Numbered from the stretch's first letter, positions 9,023-63,402 are shown. The stretch is DNA of 64,000 bases from a bacterium (GCA_030647205.1 JAUSJO010000002.1:113112-177111); one strand, 5' to 3'. Translations and numbers: made by a program. The notes: generated by a model not told the origin, from the sequence alone.

Positions 9023-9048
9023 AAACTCCGGCGAGAAGTCAGTTTCTA

Positions 9049-9264
9049 AATAATTTCCACTTTTTTAGAAAAAGTGGAGTAAAAATTGCGGCTTAGACGG
9101 CATCTTAAAAGTGTCGGATTCTAATTTACTTCAGGTTTGAAAAACCGGACTCCTTCCAGTCGGCCTAAAGGCTAATCGGTCTTTTCAAATCTTCATCAAA
9201 TCTTATCCTCGCTTTTCGATCCGATAGCCGCAAGAGAGCTCCCTTTGAAAAAATCATGCCGGAT
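9049..9264 (+). repeat. ~200-bp intergenic repeat element, copy 1
   Basis: Starts with the palindrome CCACTTTTT-TAG-AAAAAGTGG and ends CCCTTTGAAAAAATCATGCCGGA. About 93% identical to copy 2. Confidence 0.85.
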
Positions 9265-15582: not shown

Positions 15583-16587
15583 ATGACGGACGAGAAATCA
15601 GGTAAAACAGCAGCCATCCAGATGGCGGTAGATCAGATAGAAAAACAGTTTGGTAAGGGTGCCATAATGAAGCTTGGTGATAGAGGAGTACAGAATATTC
15701 AGGTTATACCCACGGGCTCTTTATCGCTAGACATAGCTTTAGGTGTAGGAGGTGTCCCAAGAGGAAGGGTTATAGAGATTTACGGTCCGGAATCAAGCGG
15801 AAAGACAACTCTCGCTTATCATGTAGTTAGTGAAGCTCAAAAAAGAGGTGGAGTAGCAGCATTTGTAGACGCTGAGCATGCCCTAGACCCTGAGTATGCA
15901 AGAAACATTGGCGTAGATATAAACAAGCTGCTAGTTTCTCAGCCAGACACAGCTGAGCAGGCACTCGAGATAACGGAGACATTGGTTCGTTCAAATGCTG
16001 TTGACGTGGTTGTTATAGACTCTGTTGCAGCTCTTGTCCCAAAAAGTGAGATAGAGGGAGAAATGGGGGACTCTCATATGGGTTTACAGGCTAGGCTTAT
16101 GTCACAAGCTCTTCGAAAGCTGACCGGTGCGACATCTAAGTCAAACACAACCCTCATATTCATCAATCAGCTTCGTATGAAGATCGGTGTAATGTTCGGA
16201 AACCCTGAGGTAACAAGTGGCGGAAATGCTTTAAAGTTCTATTCTTCAGTCAGGATTGATATCAGACGAAAGGAACAAATCAAAGATAGCGAAAACGTTA
16301 TTGGTAACCATGTACTTGTGAAGGTAGTAAAGAACAAGGTTGCACCACCATTTCGTTCTGCCGAGTTTGATATCATGTACAACGAAGGTATTTCTAAATA
16401 CGGAGATATATTAGATCTAGCGGTAAAGGACGATTTAATCAAAAAAAGTGGATCTTGGTATGAGCTTAAAGATAAAAAAATTGGCCAAGGACGCGAAGCT
16501 ACAAAACAATTCCTTAAGGATAACACTAAAATCGCAGATGAACTGGAAAAGGTCCTAAGAGCGAAGTATTTTCCGGTAAAAAAATGA
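15583..16587 (+). CDS. recA: recombinase RecA
   Basis: [11 protein letters not shown] Walker A, full-length RecA conservation. Confidence 0.95.
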
Positions 16588-16625
16588 TAAAGGTATCCCG
16601 TCTCCATTATCCCTTACTCCTCTCT

Positions 16626-16977
16626 GTCATTCCCGCGGAGGCGGGAATCTAGACTATAAAATATGAATTCATACTATGTTTATATGATGGCTAGTGATAG
16701 AAATGGTACCCTTTATATTGGGGTAACATCAAATCTCATAGGAAGGGCATTTGAGCATAAAAATGGCGCGTATGGTGGTTTTACCGCAAAGTATAAAGTA
16801 GATAAGTTAGTTTACTTTGAGGAGACAACAAGTATAGAAGAAGCCATCACGAAAGAAAAACAGCTAAAGAAGTGGAATCGTCAATGGAAAATGAGGCTTA
16901 TTGAGGACTTTAATCCCAAGTGGGAGGATTTATCCTATAACATTGCTTGACTAGATCCCCGCCTCCGCGGGAATGAC
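16626..16977 (+). mobile_element. GIY-YIG mini-nuclease cassette bounded by 27-bp inverted hairpin repeats, inserted between recA and recX
   Basis: GTCATTCCCGCGGAGGCGGGAATCTAG at 16626-16653. Its reverse complement (1 mismatch) lies at 16951-16977. Confidence 0.5.
16663..16950 (+). CDS. GIY-YIG nuclease family protein (stand-alone URI domain)
   Basis: YYVYMMASDRNGTLYIGVTSNLIGRAFEHKNG GIY-YIG motif, 95 aa. Confidence 0.85.
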   Translation: MNSYYVYMMASDRNGTLYIGVTSNLIGRAFEHKNGAYGGFTAKYKVDKLVYFEETTSIEEAITKEKQLKKWNRQWKMRLIEDFNPKWEDLSYNIA

Positions 16978-16998
16978 AATTTTTAAGGTATCAATATT

Positions 16999-17604
16999 AT
17001 GAAAATAACTAAAATAGAAAAACAAGCCAAACGAGATAGATACAACATCTATCTCGATGGCGTTTATGGATTTTCAGTAGCCAGCCGTGTCCTTATGGAC
17101 TGTTCTTTAAAAGAATATCAGAGTTTAACTGACAAACAGATTGAGGAGATTAAAAACTCTGATGCTGAGTATAAAGCGTATAACCGGGCGATTTTGATTC
17201 TTTCCTACCGGGCGAATACGGAAACTGAGTTACGAAAGAAATTGTTGAAAAATTTTGATGAGCAGAATATAAACAAAGTTATTGTTAAACTTAAAAACCA
17301 GGGGTTTATAAACGATGCAGACTTTGCTGAGAGATATATTGCGCAGAGTAAAAAAGGAAAAAGAATGACTAGCCTTGAGCTTTTGAAAAAAGGAGTTGAT
17401 AAAGAAACGATTAACTCACTGATTTCAGAAAGAGAAGATGAGACAGAGTTCAAGAACGCTCTAAACACGGCTGAAAAAGTGATCAAAAAACATGGGGATA
17501 AGGATTTACAATTTAAGAAACAAAAACTCTACGAGAACTTGGTTCGTAGGGGTTTTGCTTATGACGTTATTAAGTTGGTGATAAAAGAGATTCTAGAGAG
17601 ATAG
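16999..17604 (+). CDS. recX: recombination regulator RecX
   Basis: Three-repeat helical RecX-like sequence, adjacent to recA. Confidence 0.8.
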   Translation: MKITKIEKQAKRDRYNIYLDGVYGFSVASRVLMDCSLKEYQSLTDKQIEEIKNSDAEYKAYNRAILILSYRANTETELRKKLLKNFDEQNINKVIVKLKNQGFINDADFAERYIAQSKKGKRMTSLELLKKGVDKETINSLISEREDETEFKNALNTAEKVIKKHGDKDLQFKKQKLYENLVRRGFAYDVIKLVIKEILER

Positions 17605-23428: not shown

Positions 23429-23488
23429 GTCATTCGACTCTGAGTTGAGCTCATCGCTCAGGCTCAAAGAGCGGAGGCGGAAATCCAG
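23429..23488 (+). repeat. GTCATTC-type composite hairpin repeat
   Basis: GTCATTCGACTCTGAG...CTCAG...GAGCGGAGGCGGAAATCCAG, immediately upstream of repeat copy 2. Confidence 0.5.
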
Positions 23489-23495
23489 TTCTTTA

Positions 23496-23708
23496 AATAA
23501 TTTCCACTTTTTTAGAAAAAGTGGAGTAAAAATCGCGGCTTAGACGGCATCTTAAAGTGTTGGACTTCAATTTGCTTCAGGTTTGAAAAACCGGACTCCT
23601 TCCAGTCGGCCTAAAGGCTAATCGGTCTTTTCAAATCCTCATCAAATTTCATCCTCGCTTTTCGATCCGATAGCCGCAAAAGACTTCCTTTGAAAAAATC
23701 ATGCCGGA
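23496..23708 (+). repeat. ~200-bp intergenic repeat element, copy 2
   Basis: Near-identical to copy 1 across ~210 bp. Confidence 0.85.
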
Positions 23709-23760: not shown

Positions 23761-24516
23761 ATGAAGAAACGGATCGACATTTTATTAACAGAAAAGGGAT
23801 TAGCCGAGAGTCGGACGAAGGCCCAGGCTTTTTTAATGAGTGGCCAGGTTGAGGTCGATGGGAGAAAAATAGACAAAGCCGGAACACTTGTTGATGATGA
23901 CTCCGAGATCAAGATCAAAGAAAGATTTCCATATGTTTCACGAGGAGCGCTAAAAATCCAAAAGGCTTATCAAGAATTTGGACTAGACTTTAAAGATATG
24001 GTGATTTGCGATATTGGTTCTTCAACAGGAGGATTCACTGATTTTGCACTTCAAAATGGGGCGAAGAAAGTTTTCGCCATCGATGTTGGCTACGGTCAGC
24101 TTGATCAAAAGCTTCGTGAAGATTCTCGGGTAGTTGTGATGGAAAAAACGAATTTTCGAGACATTGATGAGTTACCCGAGAAAATTGACCTCTTTGTCTG
24201 TGACGTATCTTTTATTTCACTTAAAAAAATTATCCTAAAAATTAAAGAGATTGTAGATTATAAAACACAGTGTGTTTTGCTTATAAAGCCTCAGTTTGAG
24301 GTGGGCAAAGAGGTCGCCGATAAATGCAAAGGTGTCATAAAAGACGAGGAAGTTCAGCGAGGAGTTGTAGAGGAGATTGCCAGATTCGCTGAAGACAATG
24401 GATTTCAGGTAAAGGGACTGACGGAGTCACCGATTACCGGTGCAAAGGGGAATAAAGAGTTTCTGATTTGGCTAACCCTCTCTTGTCATTCTGAACTTGA
24501 TTCAGAATCCAGATAA
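23761..24516 (+). CDS. tlyA: TlyA family rRNA 2'-O-methyltransferase
   Basis: S4 domain followed by an FtsJ-like methyltransferase (DIGSSTGGFTD). The last 9 codons are encoded by a hairpin repeat. Confidence 0.85.
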   Translation: MKKRIDILLTEKGLAESRTKAQAFLMSGQVEVDGRKIDKAGTLVDDDSEIKIKERFPYVSRGALKIQKAYQEFGLDFKDMVICDIGSSTGGFTDFALQNGAKKVFAIDVGYGQLDQKLREDSRVVVMEKTNFRDIDELPEKIDLFVCDVSFISLKKIILKIKEIVDYKTQCVLLIKPQFEVGKEVADKCKGVIKDEEVQRGVVEEIARFAEDNGFQVKGLTESPITGAKGNKEFLIWLTLSCHSELDSESR

Positions 24517-24836
24517 ATAAATTCCATGAATTCATATTATGTTTACATCACTGCGAGCCAAAGAAATGGAACGCTATATACCGGCGTAACCAATAACTTA
24601 ATGAAAAGAATCTATGAGCATAAAAACGCCAAGCCCGAAACCTTTACAGGTAAATACCTTACTAACAGATTGGTTTATTTTGAGGAAACAGCCAGTATTG
24701 AAGAAGCAATCAAAAGAGAAAAACAGATAAAAAACTGGAAGCGTAAATGGAAATTAGATTTGATTGAGGAAAATAATCCAGAATGGGAAGATCTTTATGA
24801 TAAGTTCCTGGATTCTGAATCAAGTTCAGAATGACA
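24486..24836 (+). mobile_element. second GIY-YIG cassette bounded by inverted hairpin repeats
   Basis: GTCATTCTGAACTTGATTCAGAATCC at 24486-24512 and its exact reverse complement at 24810-24836. A decayed extra copy lies at 24903-24921. Confidence 0.5.
24526..24834 (+). CDS. GIY-YIG nuclease family protein (paralogue, ~60% identical to 16663-16950)
   Basis: YYVYITASQRNGTLYTGVTNNLMKRIYEHKN motif. C-terminal DSESSSE encoded by the hairpin. Confidence 0.85.
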   Translation: MNSYYVYITASQRNGTLYTGVTNNLMKRIYEHKNAKPETFTGKYLTNRLVYFEETASIEEAIKREKQIKNWKRKWKLDLIEENNPEWEDLYDKFLDSESSSE

Positions 24837-36068: not shown

Positions 36069-36080
36069 AAAGAAAGTATT

Positions 36081-36109
36081 TGACATAACATAAGCGCCTA
36101 GGATAATAT
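36081..36109 (+). promoter_or_regulatory. sigma70-like promoter for the major pilin gene
   Basis: TTGACA, 17 bp spacer, ATAATA. Confidence 0.45.
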
Positions 36110-36177
36110 TAGCTTGTAAATAGAAAATTTGTTTAATCAGAGCCAAATTTACAATTAAATGAGGCGGAGAGGTGAAA

Positions 36178-36591
36178 ATGAAAAAGTTAAATAGACAAGG
36201 TTTTACACTTATTGAGCTAGTTGTCGTTATGGCAATTATCGCTGTTCTTGCAGTACTAGTTGTAGGTGCTATCACAATAGCAAGAAATACAGCTAAAGAA
36301 ACTACACACAGAGCAAATGCAAAGGCTGTTCAAGCAGGGCTTGAGGCTAGATATAGCAGAACGAAAAACTATACAGGCATTTCTAGTGGCAACTTGAGTG
36401 CTATCGCAAGTGATACTTCAGTAAGCGCAGTTTTGCAAATGAGTAATGTTTGTAACAACGCCAGTTACAATGGTGGTGGAGCTGTAACATTCTCGACTGC
36501 TTCCGGATCACCGGCTTACACTATCAATGTAGCTAATGCTGCATGTGATAATACTAACTCCGGTGATAAGATTGACGGTCCTGTGAACTAG
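36178..36591 (+). CDS. pilA: type IV major pilin (prepilin)
   Basis: GGAGAGG RBS. MKKLNRQ-GFTLIELVVVMAIIAVLA class III signal and N-terminal helix. Confidence 0.85.
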   Translation: MKKLNRQGFTLIELVVVMAIIAVLAVLVVGAITIARNTAKETTHRANAKAVQAGLEARYSRTKNYTGISSGNLSAIASDTSVSAVLQMSNVCNNASYNGGGAVTFSTASGSPAYTINVANAACDNTNSGDKIDGPVN

Positions 36592-45405: not shown

Positions 45406-46206
45406 ATGTTATATGTAATTTTATTCTCACTGTTTTTTCTTGGCCTTATCGTTGGTAGTTTTTTAAATGTGGTTGTTTATCGGCTAGAAGATAAAAAAAG
45501 GAAGAATATAAGAGGCCGTTCTTTTTGCCCTCACTGCAGGGAGAAAATTAAAGCCTATGATTTGGTCCCTGTTTTATCCTGGATTATATTAAAAGGAAAA
45601 TGCCGAAGCTGCAAAAAGGAGATTTCTGTCCAATATCCTTTGGTAGAGCTTGCTACCGGCTTGGTTTTTGCTGTCCTTGGCTATATTTTTCTCCAGGGAT
45701 TGACTTTTTCAATAGCGAGTTTAGTAAATTTGGTTTTTTGGTTCTTTTTTACTGGATGCGTCATAACGGTCTTTGTTTATGACTTAAAGCACCAAATCAT
45801 ACCTGATGAGATCATTTACACTGCCTTGGTCGTAGCGTTAGTATTTGTTGGCTTAAATACCGGACTCACCGACAACTTCGAATATTTAACAGAACATCTT
45901 CTTGCCGGTTTTCTCGCCGGTGGGTTTTTCTACTCTTTGGCAGCTGTTTCAAAAGGTAAATGGATGGGCGGTGGAGATATTAAACTGGTGGCATTTATGG
46001 GGCTGGTGCTTGGCTGGAAGGGGGCGATCATCGCACTTTATACAGCGTTTATTCTAGGAGCACTTATAGGATCTTTCTTTTTACTGACTGGCAGGAAAAA
46101 GATGGGTTCAAAAATACCCTTTGGGCCGTTTCTGGTGATTGGAACATTTATAGGACTTCTTTTTGGTGAACAAATCGTTAACTTTTATGTTAGTATGTTT
46201 ATGTAA
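45406..46206 (+). CDS. pilD: prepilin peptidase (A24 family) PilD
   Basis: CPHC...CRSC zinc motif, polytopic, two catalytic Asp regions. Confidence 0.9.
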   Translation: MLYVILFSLFFLGLIVGSFLNVVVYRLEDKKRKNIRGRSFCPHCREKIKAYDLVPVLSWIILKGKCRSCKKEISVQYPLVELATGLVFAVLGYIFLQGLTFSIASLVNLVFWFFFTGCVITVFVYDLKHQIIPDEIIYTALVVALVFVGLNTGLTDNFEYLTEHLLAGFLAGGFFYSLAAVSKGKWMGGGDIKLVAFMGLVLGWKGAIIALYTAFILGALIGSFFLLTGRKKMGSKIPFGPFLVIGTFIGLLFGEQIVNFYVSMFM

Positions 46207-51318: not shown

Positions 51319-51384
51319 GTCATTCCGAGCGTAGCGGAGGAATCCCTTCCCCCGTATGTCATTCCCGCAGAGACGGGAATCTAG
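51319..51384 (+). repeat. two tandem GTCATTC-type hairpins
   Basis: GTCATTCCGAGCGTAGCGGAGGAATCCC and GTCATTCCCGCAGAGACGGGAATCTAG, directly upstream of repeat copy 3. Confidence 0.55.
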
Positions 51385-51395
51385 TCTTTCTTTAA

Positions 51396-51600
51396 ATAGT
51401 ATCCACTTTTTTAGAAAAAGTGGAGTAAAAATTGCGGCTTAGACGGTCTCTCAAAGTATCGTCTGGTTTGCTCTCTCATCTTTAAAAAAATTAACTCGCT
51501 TCTCTCAAACAAAATTCTTTTTAAAGGTTCGTTTACTCCCAGACTTTCTTTTCGAGCCGATAGCCGCAAGCGAGCTCCCTTTGAAAAAATCATGCCGGAT
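51396..51600 (+). repeat. ~200-bp intergenic repeat element, copy 3 (subtype B middle)
   Basis: Same CCACTTTTTTAGAAAAAGTGG start and CCCTTTGAAAAAATCATGCCGGAT end. Middle matches copy 5. Confidence 0.85.
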
Positions 51601-51684
51601 TTCATTGCTAGCTTTTGCAATATTGGTTATAGCTATAATTCCAACAACTTGAACATTTTGGACGATTCCCTCATACTTGTTTAT

Positions 51685-53998: not shown

Positions 53999-54020
53999 GG
54001 TATTGTCACCATAATTATTC

Positions 54021-54044
54021 GTCATTCTGGCTTGTCCAGAAGCA
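54021..54044 (+). repeat. GTCATTC-type hairpin
   Basis: GTCATTCTGGCTTGTCCAGAAGCA, upstream of repeat copy 4. Confidence 0.45.
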
Positions 54045-54052
54045 TCTCTTTA

Positions 54053-54275
54053 AAATAGTTTCCACTTTTTTAGAAAAAGTGGAGTAAAAATCGCGACTTA
54101 TGGCGGCGACAAAGTGTCGGATTTCAGTTCGCTCAGGTTTGAAAAAATGAACTCGCTAGATCGCTCAGACAACATTATTTTCAAAATCTTCGTTCACTTT
54201 ATCCTCGCTTTGTCTTCGATAGTCGCATTAAGAGATCACTTGGCTCATCTTCCCTTTGAAAAAATCGTGCCGGGG
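54053..54275 (+). repeat. ~200-bp intergenic repeat element, copy 4 (divergent)
   Basis: Conserved 5' palindrome and 3' CCCTTTGAAAAAATCGTGCCGGGG. Arm variant GCGACT...AGTCGC. Confidence 0.8.
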
Positions 54276-61354: not shown

Positions 61355-61377
61355 TGTATAATTCTGACCTCTCTCTG

Positions 61378-61430
61378 TCATTCTGACGAAGGAAGAATCT
61401 AGATCCTTCGTGCCTCAGGATGACGAAGTA
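61378..61430 (+). repeat. GTCATTC-type hairpin repeat after ruvB
   Basis: GTCATTCTGACGAAGGAAGAATCTAG plus the complementary TCCTTCGTGCCTCAGGATGACGAAG. Confidence 0.5.
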
Positions 61431-62729: not shown

Positions 62730-63141
62730 CTTAGGTCAGAAGTTAGGTGAGCAGCTTAAGGGAGGTGAGGTGGTTGCTCTTTATGGTGATCTCGGCGGAG
62801 GAAAAACGCAGTTCACAAAAGGAATTGCCAAGGGACTAGGAATAGAAGATGATATTTTCTCTCCTACGTTTGTGATTCGCAGAGATTGTAAGGGCAAAGA
62901 GTTGAGCTTGCTTCACTATGATTTTTATAGGTTTGAAGTACCGGATGAAGAACTGATTGAAAGTTTAGAAGAAGGGATAAATCCTGAAAATGTGACGGTT
63001 ATAGAGTGGGCGGAAAGAGTTGAAAAATATTTGCCAGAAAACACGATTAAAGTTGTATTCCGTTACATCTCAGAAAGTGAAAGAGAAATAGAGATTGAAG
63101 GTAATGGTTTTAGTGCTGTCATTCCGACCGACCCTACTTAA
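62692..63141 (+). CDS. tsaE: tRNA t6A biosynthesis ATPase TsaE
   Basis: VALYGDLGGGKTQFTKGIAKGLGI P-loop. C-terminal codons VIPTDPT lie within a GTCATTC hairpin. Confidence 0.85.
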   Translation: MKIVSKSSDETVSLGQKLGEQLKGGEVVALYGDLGGGKTQFTKGIAKGLGIEDDIFSPTFVIRRDCKGKELSLLHYDFYRFEVPDEELIESLEEGINPENVTVIEWAERVEKYLPENTIKVVFRYISESEREIEIEGNGFSAVIPTDPT

Positions 63142-63162
63142 GTAGCGAGTAGAGGAATCCCT
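63118..63162 (+). repeat. GTCATTCCGA-type hairpin overlapping the tsaE 3' end
   Basis: GTCATTCCGACCGACCCTACTTAAGTAGCGAGTAGAGGAATCCC, related to the hairpin at 51319. Confidence 0.5.
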
Positions 63163-63172
63163 TTCTTTCAAA

Positions 63173-63352
63173 ATTATTTTCCACTTTTTTAGAAAAAGTG
63201 GAGTAAAAATCGCGACTTAGACGGTCTCTCAAAGTATCGTCTGGTTCGTTTTCTCATGTTTAAAAAAATTAACTCGCTAATCGCTCAAACAAAATTATTT
63301 TTAAAGGATCGTTCACTCCCAGACTTTCTTTTCGAGCCGATAGTCGCATCAA
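63173..63352 (+). repeat. ~200-bp intergenic repeat element, copy 5 (subtype B, truncated 3' end)
   Basis: 5' palindrome and middle match copy 3. Arm variant GCGACT...AGTCGC. Lacks the terminal CCCTTTGAAAAAATC box. Confidence 0.8.
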
Positions 63353-63402
63353 AGTGATGTTGCCTTTTTCTTGAAATCGCAAGAAAGTGTTAAAATAAAG
63401 TT

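Follow-up and report, generated by a model that had tools for sequence, protein, structure and literature searches.

In the 64,000-nt stretch of DNA analysed here (hereafter the window; GCA_030647205.1, JAUSJO010000002.1:113112-177111), the recA and recX genes are separated by a 354-bp unit, cassette A, which consists of a GIY-YIG nuclease gene and two inverted hairpin arms (Table 1). Upstream of recA lie lexA and a 130-aa ORF (orf130), and the nuclease gene, referred to as ssn-like, reads in the same direction as recA and recX. A preliminary description of this DNA had reported a 95-aa GIY-YIG ORF that splits the recA-recX pair, and this was borne out by the Pfam match of the ORF and by the identification of its neighbours as RecA and RecX.

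Table 1. Coordinates of cassette A, its neighbours and the other hairpin-bearing features of the window
Feature	Position	Strand	Remarks
recA	15583-16587		RecA, E 3e-140
Pyrimidine-rich leader, 37 nt	16588-16624	+	Spans recA stop to left arm
Left arm of cassette A	16625-16652	+	TGTCATTCCCGCGGAGGCGGGAATCTAG; NTS/SRM-type hairpin, forward orientation; CTCTC directly 5'
ssn-like gene	16663-16950	+	95-aa single-domain GIY-YIG nuclease (protein A); Pfam GIY-YIG E 4.9e-16
Right arm of cassette A	16951-16978	-	Left-arm hairpin with one mismatch, GGGGATC for GGGAATC
recX	16999-17604		Three RecX domains
Cassette B	24484-24836	+	Arms TGTCATTCTGAACTTGATTCAGAATCCAG at 24484-24512 (+) and 24808-24836 (-)
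Cassette B ORF	24526-24834	+	102 aa, 66% identical to protein A
Extra B-type arm, long loop	24868-24917	-	Outside right arm of cassette B
Solo third A-type arm	51357-51384	+	Two mismatches, one weakening the stem (27-mer match 51358-51384)
Solo SRM-like hairpins	23429-23485, 51319-51346, 51357-51384, 54020-54045, 63118-63148		All start (T/C)GTCATTC
ORF-less convergent SRM-like arm pair	61376-61427	.	Central CTAG common to both arms
Intergenic element, ~200 nt, five copies	9040-9262, 23486-23708, 51384-51606, 54045-54275, 63158-63360	+	Each copy directly 3' of an SRM-like hairpin

Structure of cassette A

The 27-mer GTCATTCCCGCGGAGGCGGGAATCTAG is found at 16626-16652 on the plus strand and its reverse complement, with one mismatch, at 16951-16977, so that the inverted repeats are as first described except for the end coordinate of the left repeat, which had been given as 16653 and should be 16652. 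Taken at their full length of 28 nt, the arms of cassette A are 96% complementary at a spacing of 298 nt, and the arm 27-mer yielded three matches compared to none in 100 dinucleotide-preserving shuffles. Each arm corresponds to a hairpin, ATTCCCGC-GGAG-GCGGGAAT, and the left arm folds as ssDNA with -9.8 kcal/mol (z = -4.15). Neither arm was listed as an intrinsic terminator by the terminator scan, which also predicted no terminator-like site between recA and the ssn-like ORF; no T-run is present 3' of the left arm, where ACTATAAAAT comes next. The pyrimidine-rich leader that precedes the left arm is missing at the empty site of a close relative (L095, described below), and its terminal CTCTCT recurs at the left end of other cassettes.

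No target-site duplication at the arm boundaries and no excision junction could be found in the cassettes compared. An 8-nt direct repeat, AAGGTATC, does flank cassette A, with copies at 16591-16598 and 16984-16991, which places them 27 nt outside the left arm and 6 nt outside the right arm; four cassette-bearing or related loci (L093, L002, L046 and L047) showed no counterpart. This pair could derive from duplication of the target of a longer unit or be accidental, and was judged to be possibly the latter. In addition, the outer end of the right arm (ATGACA) forms, together with TATTAT 16 nt further on, a sigma-70-like promoter directed toward recX (16973-17000; 10 of 12 positions), which may be a chance occurrence, as sites of this kind are no more numerous in the region than expected from shuffles.

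Protein A and the Ssn family

The Pfam GIY-YIG domain spans residues 4-77 of the 95 residues of protein A, and the AF2 model (pLDDT 90.9) consists of one compact GIY-YIG domain, for which the best solved structural neighbours were the UPF0213 proteins 1ZG2 and 1YWL, Slx1 and the N-terminal domain of UvrC. Searched by sequence, protein A had no match in the PDB, where no Ssn structure is deposited, and nothing in NCBIfam scored above cut-off; the group I intron endonuclease model TIGR01453 was matched below threshold (E 0.008, 16 bits, cut-off 56). Just two weak matches, both to Staphylococcus phages, were obtained when phage records were searched with protein A. We take YhbQ, BH0048 and EF2693 to belong to a separate subfamily, UPF0213 (cd10456). 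The COG2827/YhbQ-like label first attached to the ORF is imprecise: the GIY-YIG assignment holds, and the closest characterised relative is SsnA, which has been placed in cd10448 (PMC11893778).

The Ssn family (cd10448) was defined in 2025 by Chenal et al. (Nat Commun; PMC11893778), together with the Neisseria Transformation Sequence (NTS), CGTCATTCCCGCGMAVGCGGGAATCYRG, as the first site-specific nuclease family that cuts ssDNA only. SsnA of Neisseria meningitidis (Nm) is a 94-aa single-domain GIY-YIG protein (CDD cd10448) that binds the folded NTS hairpin only in ssDNA and only in one orientation. It cleaves that strand hydrolytically, a few nucleotides 5' of the hairpin, and leaves dsDNA and RNA uncut; in Neisseria, SsnA limits the integration of NTS-bearing transforming DNA (PMC11893778). 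At least one SRM was reported nearby for 71% of the Ssn homologues and SRMs on both sides for 42%, the NTS-ssnA-NTS architecture was stated to be identical to that of insertion sequences, and descent from a mobile element was hypothesised (PMC11893778).

The comparison of protein A with SsnA was made using the N. gonorrhoeae locus in place of the Nm SsnA sequence. By tblastn, protein A matched a single place in the N. gonorrhoeae record (E 5e-26), with NTS copies all around, and pairwise alignment with the product of this locus gave 54% identity over 89 aa (E 7e-37). In the N. gonorrhoeae product, Tyr, Tyr and Glu are counted at 6, 17 and 64, the residues mutated in Nm SsnA. We infer that this place is ssnA, because it is the sole match in the record, is surrounded by NTS and gives the numbering Y6/Y17/E64. 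The corresponding residues of protein A, Y7, Y18 and E65, have the same spacing as in Nm SsnA and are invariant in an alignment of 35 homologues. At the threshold for homology to Neisseria SsnA taken from PMC11893778 (E < 1e-10), protein A falls within the family, whose size is considerable, 4,239 clusters at 50% identity having E 1e-10 or better. Among the intact ORFs, dN ranged from 0.12 to 0.28 with dS saturated, hence no dN/dS ratio is given, and these ORFs are therefore considered to be under purifying selection.

In one N. gonorrhoeae strain (L099; NZ_CP119142.1, 1881119-1882585), at least eight NTS copies in both orientations were observed around an ssnA-like frame, which lacks an ATG in frame where the start is expected (ATGCACG, followed by a shift of frame), and this gene may be frameshifted. 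It was also observed that PLSDB lists 2.17-Mb N. gonorrhoeae chromosomes as plasmids, and it was in such mislabelled chromosomes that the locus used for the comparison with SsnA was encountered.

Correspondence of the arms to NTS and SRM

Of the 28 positions of the NTS consensus, 26 are matched by the arms of cassette A, the mismatches being T for C at position 1 and, in the loop, G in place of the required A or C. Applied strictly, the published SRM and NTS patterns accordingly gave no match in the window, while the SRM pattern with one loop position relaxed identified exactly three A-type copies; the strict SRM pattern thus misses the cassette A arms because of the single loop base G, and not because the motif is absent. 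Control loci from Neisseria, Azospirillum, Aeromonas and a WS5 relative served to validate the implementation of the patterns, and NTS/SRM copies were found in all of them.

Across cassettes A, B, C and D, arms and protein co-vary, the arms matching within each cassette and differing between cassettes. A CTCTCT or similar pyrimidine run precedes the left arms of cassettes A and B and of the ORF-less pair, and such a TCTCT/pyrimidine run is common 5' of the left arm only, the right flanks being without common sequence. A likeness between the right flanks of cassette A and of the L046 cassette (AATT..TAAGGT..ATTATG) was considered as part of the element and rejected, since the identical L047 copy is flanked differently. 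The GTCATT ends of the cassette A arms face outward, and the same outward layout was found in Aeromonas, Azospirillum and Sphingobium loci; a supposed difference in arm orientation from Neisseria, where the arms would face inward, was dropped, as N. gonorrhoeae has NTS in both orientations on both sides.

Judged on these sequence comparisons, cassette A is an NTS-ssnA-NTS unit as described by Chenal et al. (2025) and not a new kind of element, and protein A most likely recognises and cuts its own arms as a cognate pair. The suggestion in the preliminary description that cassettes bounded by terminal inverted repeats of this kind were undescribed does not hold, because hairpins on both sides of the gene and the likeness to insertion sequences have been known since March 2025 (PMC11893778). 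Follow-up work on Ssn mobility was not found by full-text and title-phrase literature searches. What is new here is a member in an uncultured lineage, comparative evidence of turnover and copying, and several new enzyme/hairpin pairs.

State of the recA-recX junction in relatives

From the source names on RecX homologues, the host is placed among candidate division WS5 / 'Patescibacteria group' MAGs. Relatives were found mainly by protein search and exact-protein look-ups; a RecX scan of genome contigs gave just one close relative, and a scan of metagenome contigs none closer than 38%. The lexA-orf130-recA-recX synteny is conserved in the relatives and the recA-recX junction is variable. The junction is empty in L095, where recA and recX are 3 nt apart (TGATAAATG), and in L097, where a 56-nt spacer (L097 2445-2500) contains CGGGAATCTAAG, a sequence that resembles the 3' half of an A-type arm and may be the remnant of an old insertion. 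L093/L094 carry a decayed cassette A, whose ORF is interrupted by an in-frame stop and whose right arm is degraded, whereas L002 holds a different Ssn cassette (protein 43% identical to protein A, arms CGTCATTCTGGCTTGGCCAGAAT) and L096 a 132-aa PDDEXK_3 gene unrelated to the cassette. The insertion proposed in the preliminary description, for which a search for an empty site in related genomes had been suggested, is hence backed by two empty junctions, by a decayed cassette, another cassette or an unrelated gene there in further relatives, and by the arm-bounded identical copies of GCA_021796415.1 (described below). The description had also named an ORF held at the same position with no repeat-bounded polymorphism as the finding that would speak against an insertion; the relatives do show arm-bounded polymorphism, so this objection falls away. 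More distant genomes, with recA-recX gaps of ~150-220 nt and no GIY-YIG gene, were considered as further empty sites and set aside as too distant to count.

Two pairs of sister genomes are informative in this respect: L093 and L095 share 99% of RecA at the amino acid level and 91% at the nucleotide level, L002 and L096 share 94% of RecA amino acids, and the members of each pair differ at the junction, so that its state has switched in each of the two. The DNA identity of cassette A in the window and in L093 (82%) is close to that of recA (81%), which fits a long vertical residence and not a recent movement of this copy. Cassette A at this site is thus probably old, vertically inherited and cleanly removed in the L095 line. 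A possible explanation for the clean empty site of L095 is that it could have arisen by allele replacement through homologous recombination instead of excision.

Small PDDEXK_3 (PF13366) genes of ~130 aa were also observed in these relatives (L096 2069-2467 and 487-885, L093 671-1060, L002 2144-2545), variably present on either side of recA and absent in the window, L095 and L097. It seems that small nuclease genes, of two unrelated folds, accumulate beside recA.

Copies and solo arms at other sites

In GCA_021796415.1, one 95-aa protein (73% identical to protein A) is encoded twice, 4.4 kb apart, in a type IV pilus locus. The two copies (L046 and L047) are identical from TCTCTGTCATTCCCGCGCAGGCGGGAAT to ATTCCCGCCTGCGCGGGAATGACA save for one base of the left arm (AATCCAG vs AATGCAG), and the identity stops at TCTCTGTCATT... 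and ...AATGACA, outside which the sequences are unrelated. The window has nothing inserted in the orthologous pilC|pilin gap (36069-36178); at the second site, its pilD (45406-46206) is followed after 22 nt by a pilin gene, and no cassette is present. The pilD gene of GCA_021796415.1 (L046 ~2290-2392) itself contains an in-frame insertion of ~100 nt, in which a pyrimidine linker joins a half-arm to a full D-type arm, translated as ...VIPAPSSVIPAQAGIQS... / ...TVIPAPSSVIPAQAGIQS..., which is missing in the pilD of the window. The same succession of half-arm, linker and full arm was observed outside the cassettes of locus L098.

Similar cassettes were encountered in other surroundings. At 77% identity, the homologue most similar to protein A is encoded upstream of dnaG-rpoD in a further metagenome and has the same arm layout, and another MAG carries two cassettes 1.8 kb apart. 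The sufB and sufC genes are normally adjacent; on plasmid AZO_p3 of Azospirillum lipoferum 4B (255118-256178, L100), they are split by an Ssn-type gene with strict SRM arms. Taken together, these comparisons indicate that the cassette is a dispensable unit that has been gained, lost, replaced and duplicated in WS5 genomes, with its boundaries at the arms.

Within the 64-kb window, cassette A is accompanied by cassette B, which has a tlyA-like gene on one side and a gene for a ychF-like GTPase on the other; the proteins of the two cassettes share 66% identity and their arms are different. The tlyA-like ORF (23761-24516) was observed to run ~11 codons into the left arm of cassette B. The ORF-less pair consists of two different arm sequences shortly 3' of the stop codon of the upstream gene; a single long hairpin (-12.4 kcal/mol) results when it is folded, and it may represent a cassette that has lost its gene, or a landing site. 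The solo SRM-like hairpins fall into several sequence classes, two of which form a tandem flanked by a xerC-like integrase gene and by comEC.

The window further contains the five copies of an intergenic element listed in Table 1. The two copies checked, at 23486 and 51384, lie 5' of a plus-strand gene. Each element has a perfect hairpin, TCCACTTTTTTAGAAAAAGTGGA, followed by a structured core of ~140 nt closed by GCGRCT/AGYCGC and, in four of the five copies, by a box, CTTTGAAAAAATCATGCCGG. RNAalifold predicted 47 pairs, 11 of which show compensatory changes. The element has no Rfam match, and no copy was seen in the related loci compared.

Proposed mechanism and alternative explanations

We regard it as likely that the feature is a mobile-like Ssn-SRM cassette, made up of an ssDNA nuclease gene and two inverted cognate hairpins. 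As the GTCATT ends point outward, each strand has one forward site at its own 5' cassette edge. The predicted nicks would fall just outside the unit, on the left at the CTCTCT/TCTCT run, and the nuclease would nick the arms when the DNA is single-stranded, as during replication, transformation or SOS-induced repair, after which host replication and recombination would complete the copying or insertion. Independently of the gene, arms also occur and insert on their own, as seen from the comparison of genomes. The ssn-like gene may be read through from the recA promoter, which is plausible since the gene is co-directional within lexA-recA-recX and no terminator-like site is predicted before the ORF. 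A second, compatible role could be the restriction of incoming hairpin-bearing ssDNA, as in Neisseria.

A further-reaching proposal is that the ~350-bp cassettes are autonomous elements, in which a 95-aa hydrolytic nickase mobilises its own gene and arms, and solo arms in trans, via ssDNA intermediates, and that they are currently active in WS5, settling in operons that serve recombination (recA-recX), the uptake of DNA (pilus genes, comEC) and replication (dnaG). This we put forward only tentatively and consider rather less probable than its negation. GIY-YIG enzymes are hydrolytic and are not known to have strand-transfer activity, so self-transposition by such an enzyme would be without precedent.

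A different explanation is that the ssn-like gene is a domesticated host gene, part of a resident system for ssDNA restriction or recombination control that is kept for acting on the same ssDNA intermediates as the lexA-recA-recX operon, the differences between relatives then being ordinary gene loss. The co-direction of cassette A with recA and recX, with lexA close by, its seemingly vertical inheritance between the window and L093 and the purifying selection on intact copies all fit this explanation, as do the position of other cassettes and arms beside type IV pilus genes and comEC and the limitation by Neisseria SsnA of the integration of NTS-carrying transforming DNA (PMC11893778). A purely domesticated function does not, however, account for a pseudogene in L093 next to a cleanly empty sister (L095), for a different cassette lineage at the same junction in L002, for identical, arm-bounded copies in GCA_021796415.1 or for an arm in frame within pilD of that genome, and close homologues sit in such unrelated contexts as dnaG, sufB|sufC and the pilus genes. 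Domestication as the explanation of the locus is thus considered unlikely, though it is compatible with a mobile cassette and the two are not mutually exclusive.

That the unit is a free-standing GIY-YIG homing endonuclease gene, whose product cuts the duplex empty recA-recX junction and which is copied by double-strand-break repair, is very improbable. Such a gene would account for the splitting of two genes conserved as a pair and for the empty alleles of relatives, and both the GIY-YIG domain and the weak, sub-threshold TIGR01453 match (E 0.008) point in its direction; protein A is, however, a one-domain protein of 95 aa without a DNA-binding domain, its close relatives are found at many unrelated sites, matched hairpin arms are unlike homing endonuclease genes, and the characterised Ssn relatives are without dsDNA activity (PMC11893778). 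Two independent terminator-like or REP-like hairpins that flank an unrelated small gene by chance can be dismissed almost entirely, for although SRM-like hairpins also occur solo in intergenic positions of the window (51319, 51357, 54020, 63118), the terminator scan listed neither arm and the left arm is not followed by a T-run, arms match within and differ between cassettes A, B, C and D, duplicated copies end at the arms, and the association of Ssn homologues with SRMs is a published one (71% with at least one, 42% with both sides; PMC11893778).

Comparison with known systems

The mobile-like Ssn-SRM cassette at recA-recX shares with the published Ssn/NTS system the ~95-aa single-domain GIY-YIG protein, the arm-gene-arm layout and the outward GTCAT ends. 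It differs in its host, an uncultured WS5 lineage, in the loop base G and in arm number, with three A-type arms in the 64 kb of the window compared to hundreds per genome in Neisseria, where the N. gonorrhoeae gene lies within a dense NTS array of both orientations. Moreover, several diverged cassette lineages, each with its own arms, are present within one WS5 genome, and gain, loss and duplication, which were merely hypothesised in PMC11893778, are here supported by direct comparative evidence.

The IS200/IS605 elements and the RAYT (REP/BIME) systems resemble the cassette in that a small nuclease recognises ssDNA hairpins and its gene lies between its own hairpins, in that dispersed hairpins far outnumber the gene and no target duplication is seen, and in the conservation of a short motif 5' of the left hairpin, CTCTCT in the present case. 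Their HUH/Y1 enzymes, however, form covalent intermediates and rejoin strands, whereas Ssn is hydrolytic with no known rejoining, and in IS200/IS605 the ends are not mutual inverted repeats and both cuts are made on one strand. Homing endonucleases such as I-TevI and the T4 Seg proteins share the catalytic domain and the habit of a selfish gene between conserved genes, but are ~200-250 aa long with a separate DNA-binding domain, have one duplex cognate site and lack flanking hairpins. The UPF0213 proteins BH0048 (1ZG2) and EF2693 (1YWL), which gave the best structural matches and have the same ~95-aa stand-alone GIY-YIG fold, are only ~25% identical to protein A, and an association with hairpins is not described for them.

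Two further groups of repeats offer a parallel in layout only, their repeat units being unrelated in sequence. In the intergenic mosaic elements of Neisseria (dRS3 and RS units), as in the ~200-nt element of the window, SRM-type hairpins are joined to longer intergenic repeats, and the Rickettsia palindromic elements, like the insertion in pilD of GCA_021796415.1, place a hairpin in frame within a coding gene.

Significance

For the annotation of such genomes, Ssn arms explain short hairpins that extend or interrupt ORFs. The enzyme/hairpin pairs A, B, C and D, with their distinct stems, are what the proposed ssDNA tool applications need. The WS5 genomes constitute a natural data set on the question of a mobile origin of NTS-ssnA-NTS units, as they display empty, filled, decayed and replaced states of one junction, to which they add arm-bounded identical copies in one genome, ORF-less arm pairs and an in-frame arm. 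If the tentative reading of the cassettes as autonomous elements were true, they would be among the smallest known mobile elements, and would move by a transposition chemistry distinct from that of the DDE, HUH, serine and tyrosine enzymes.
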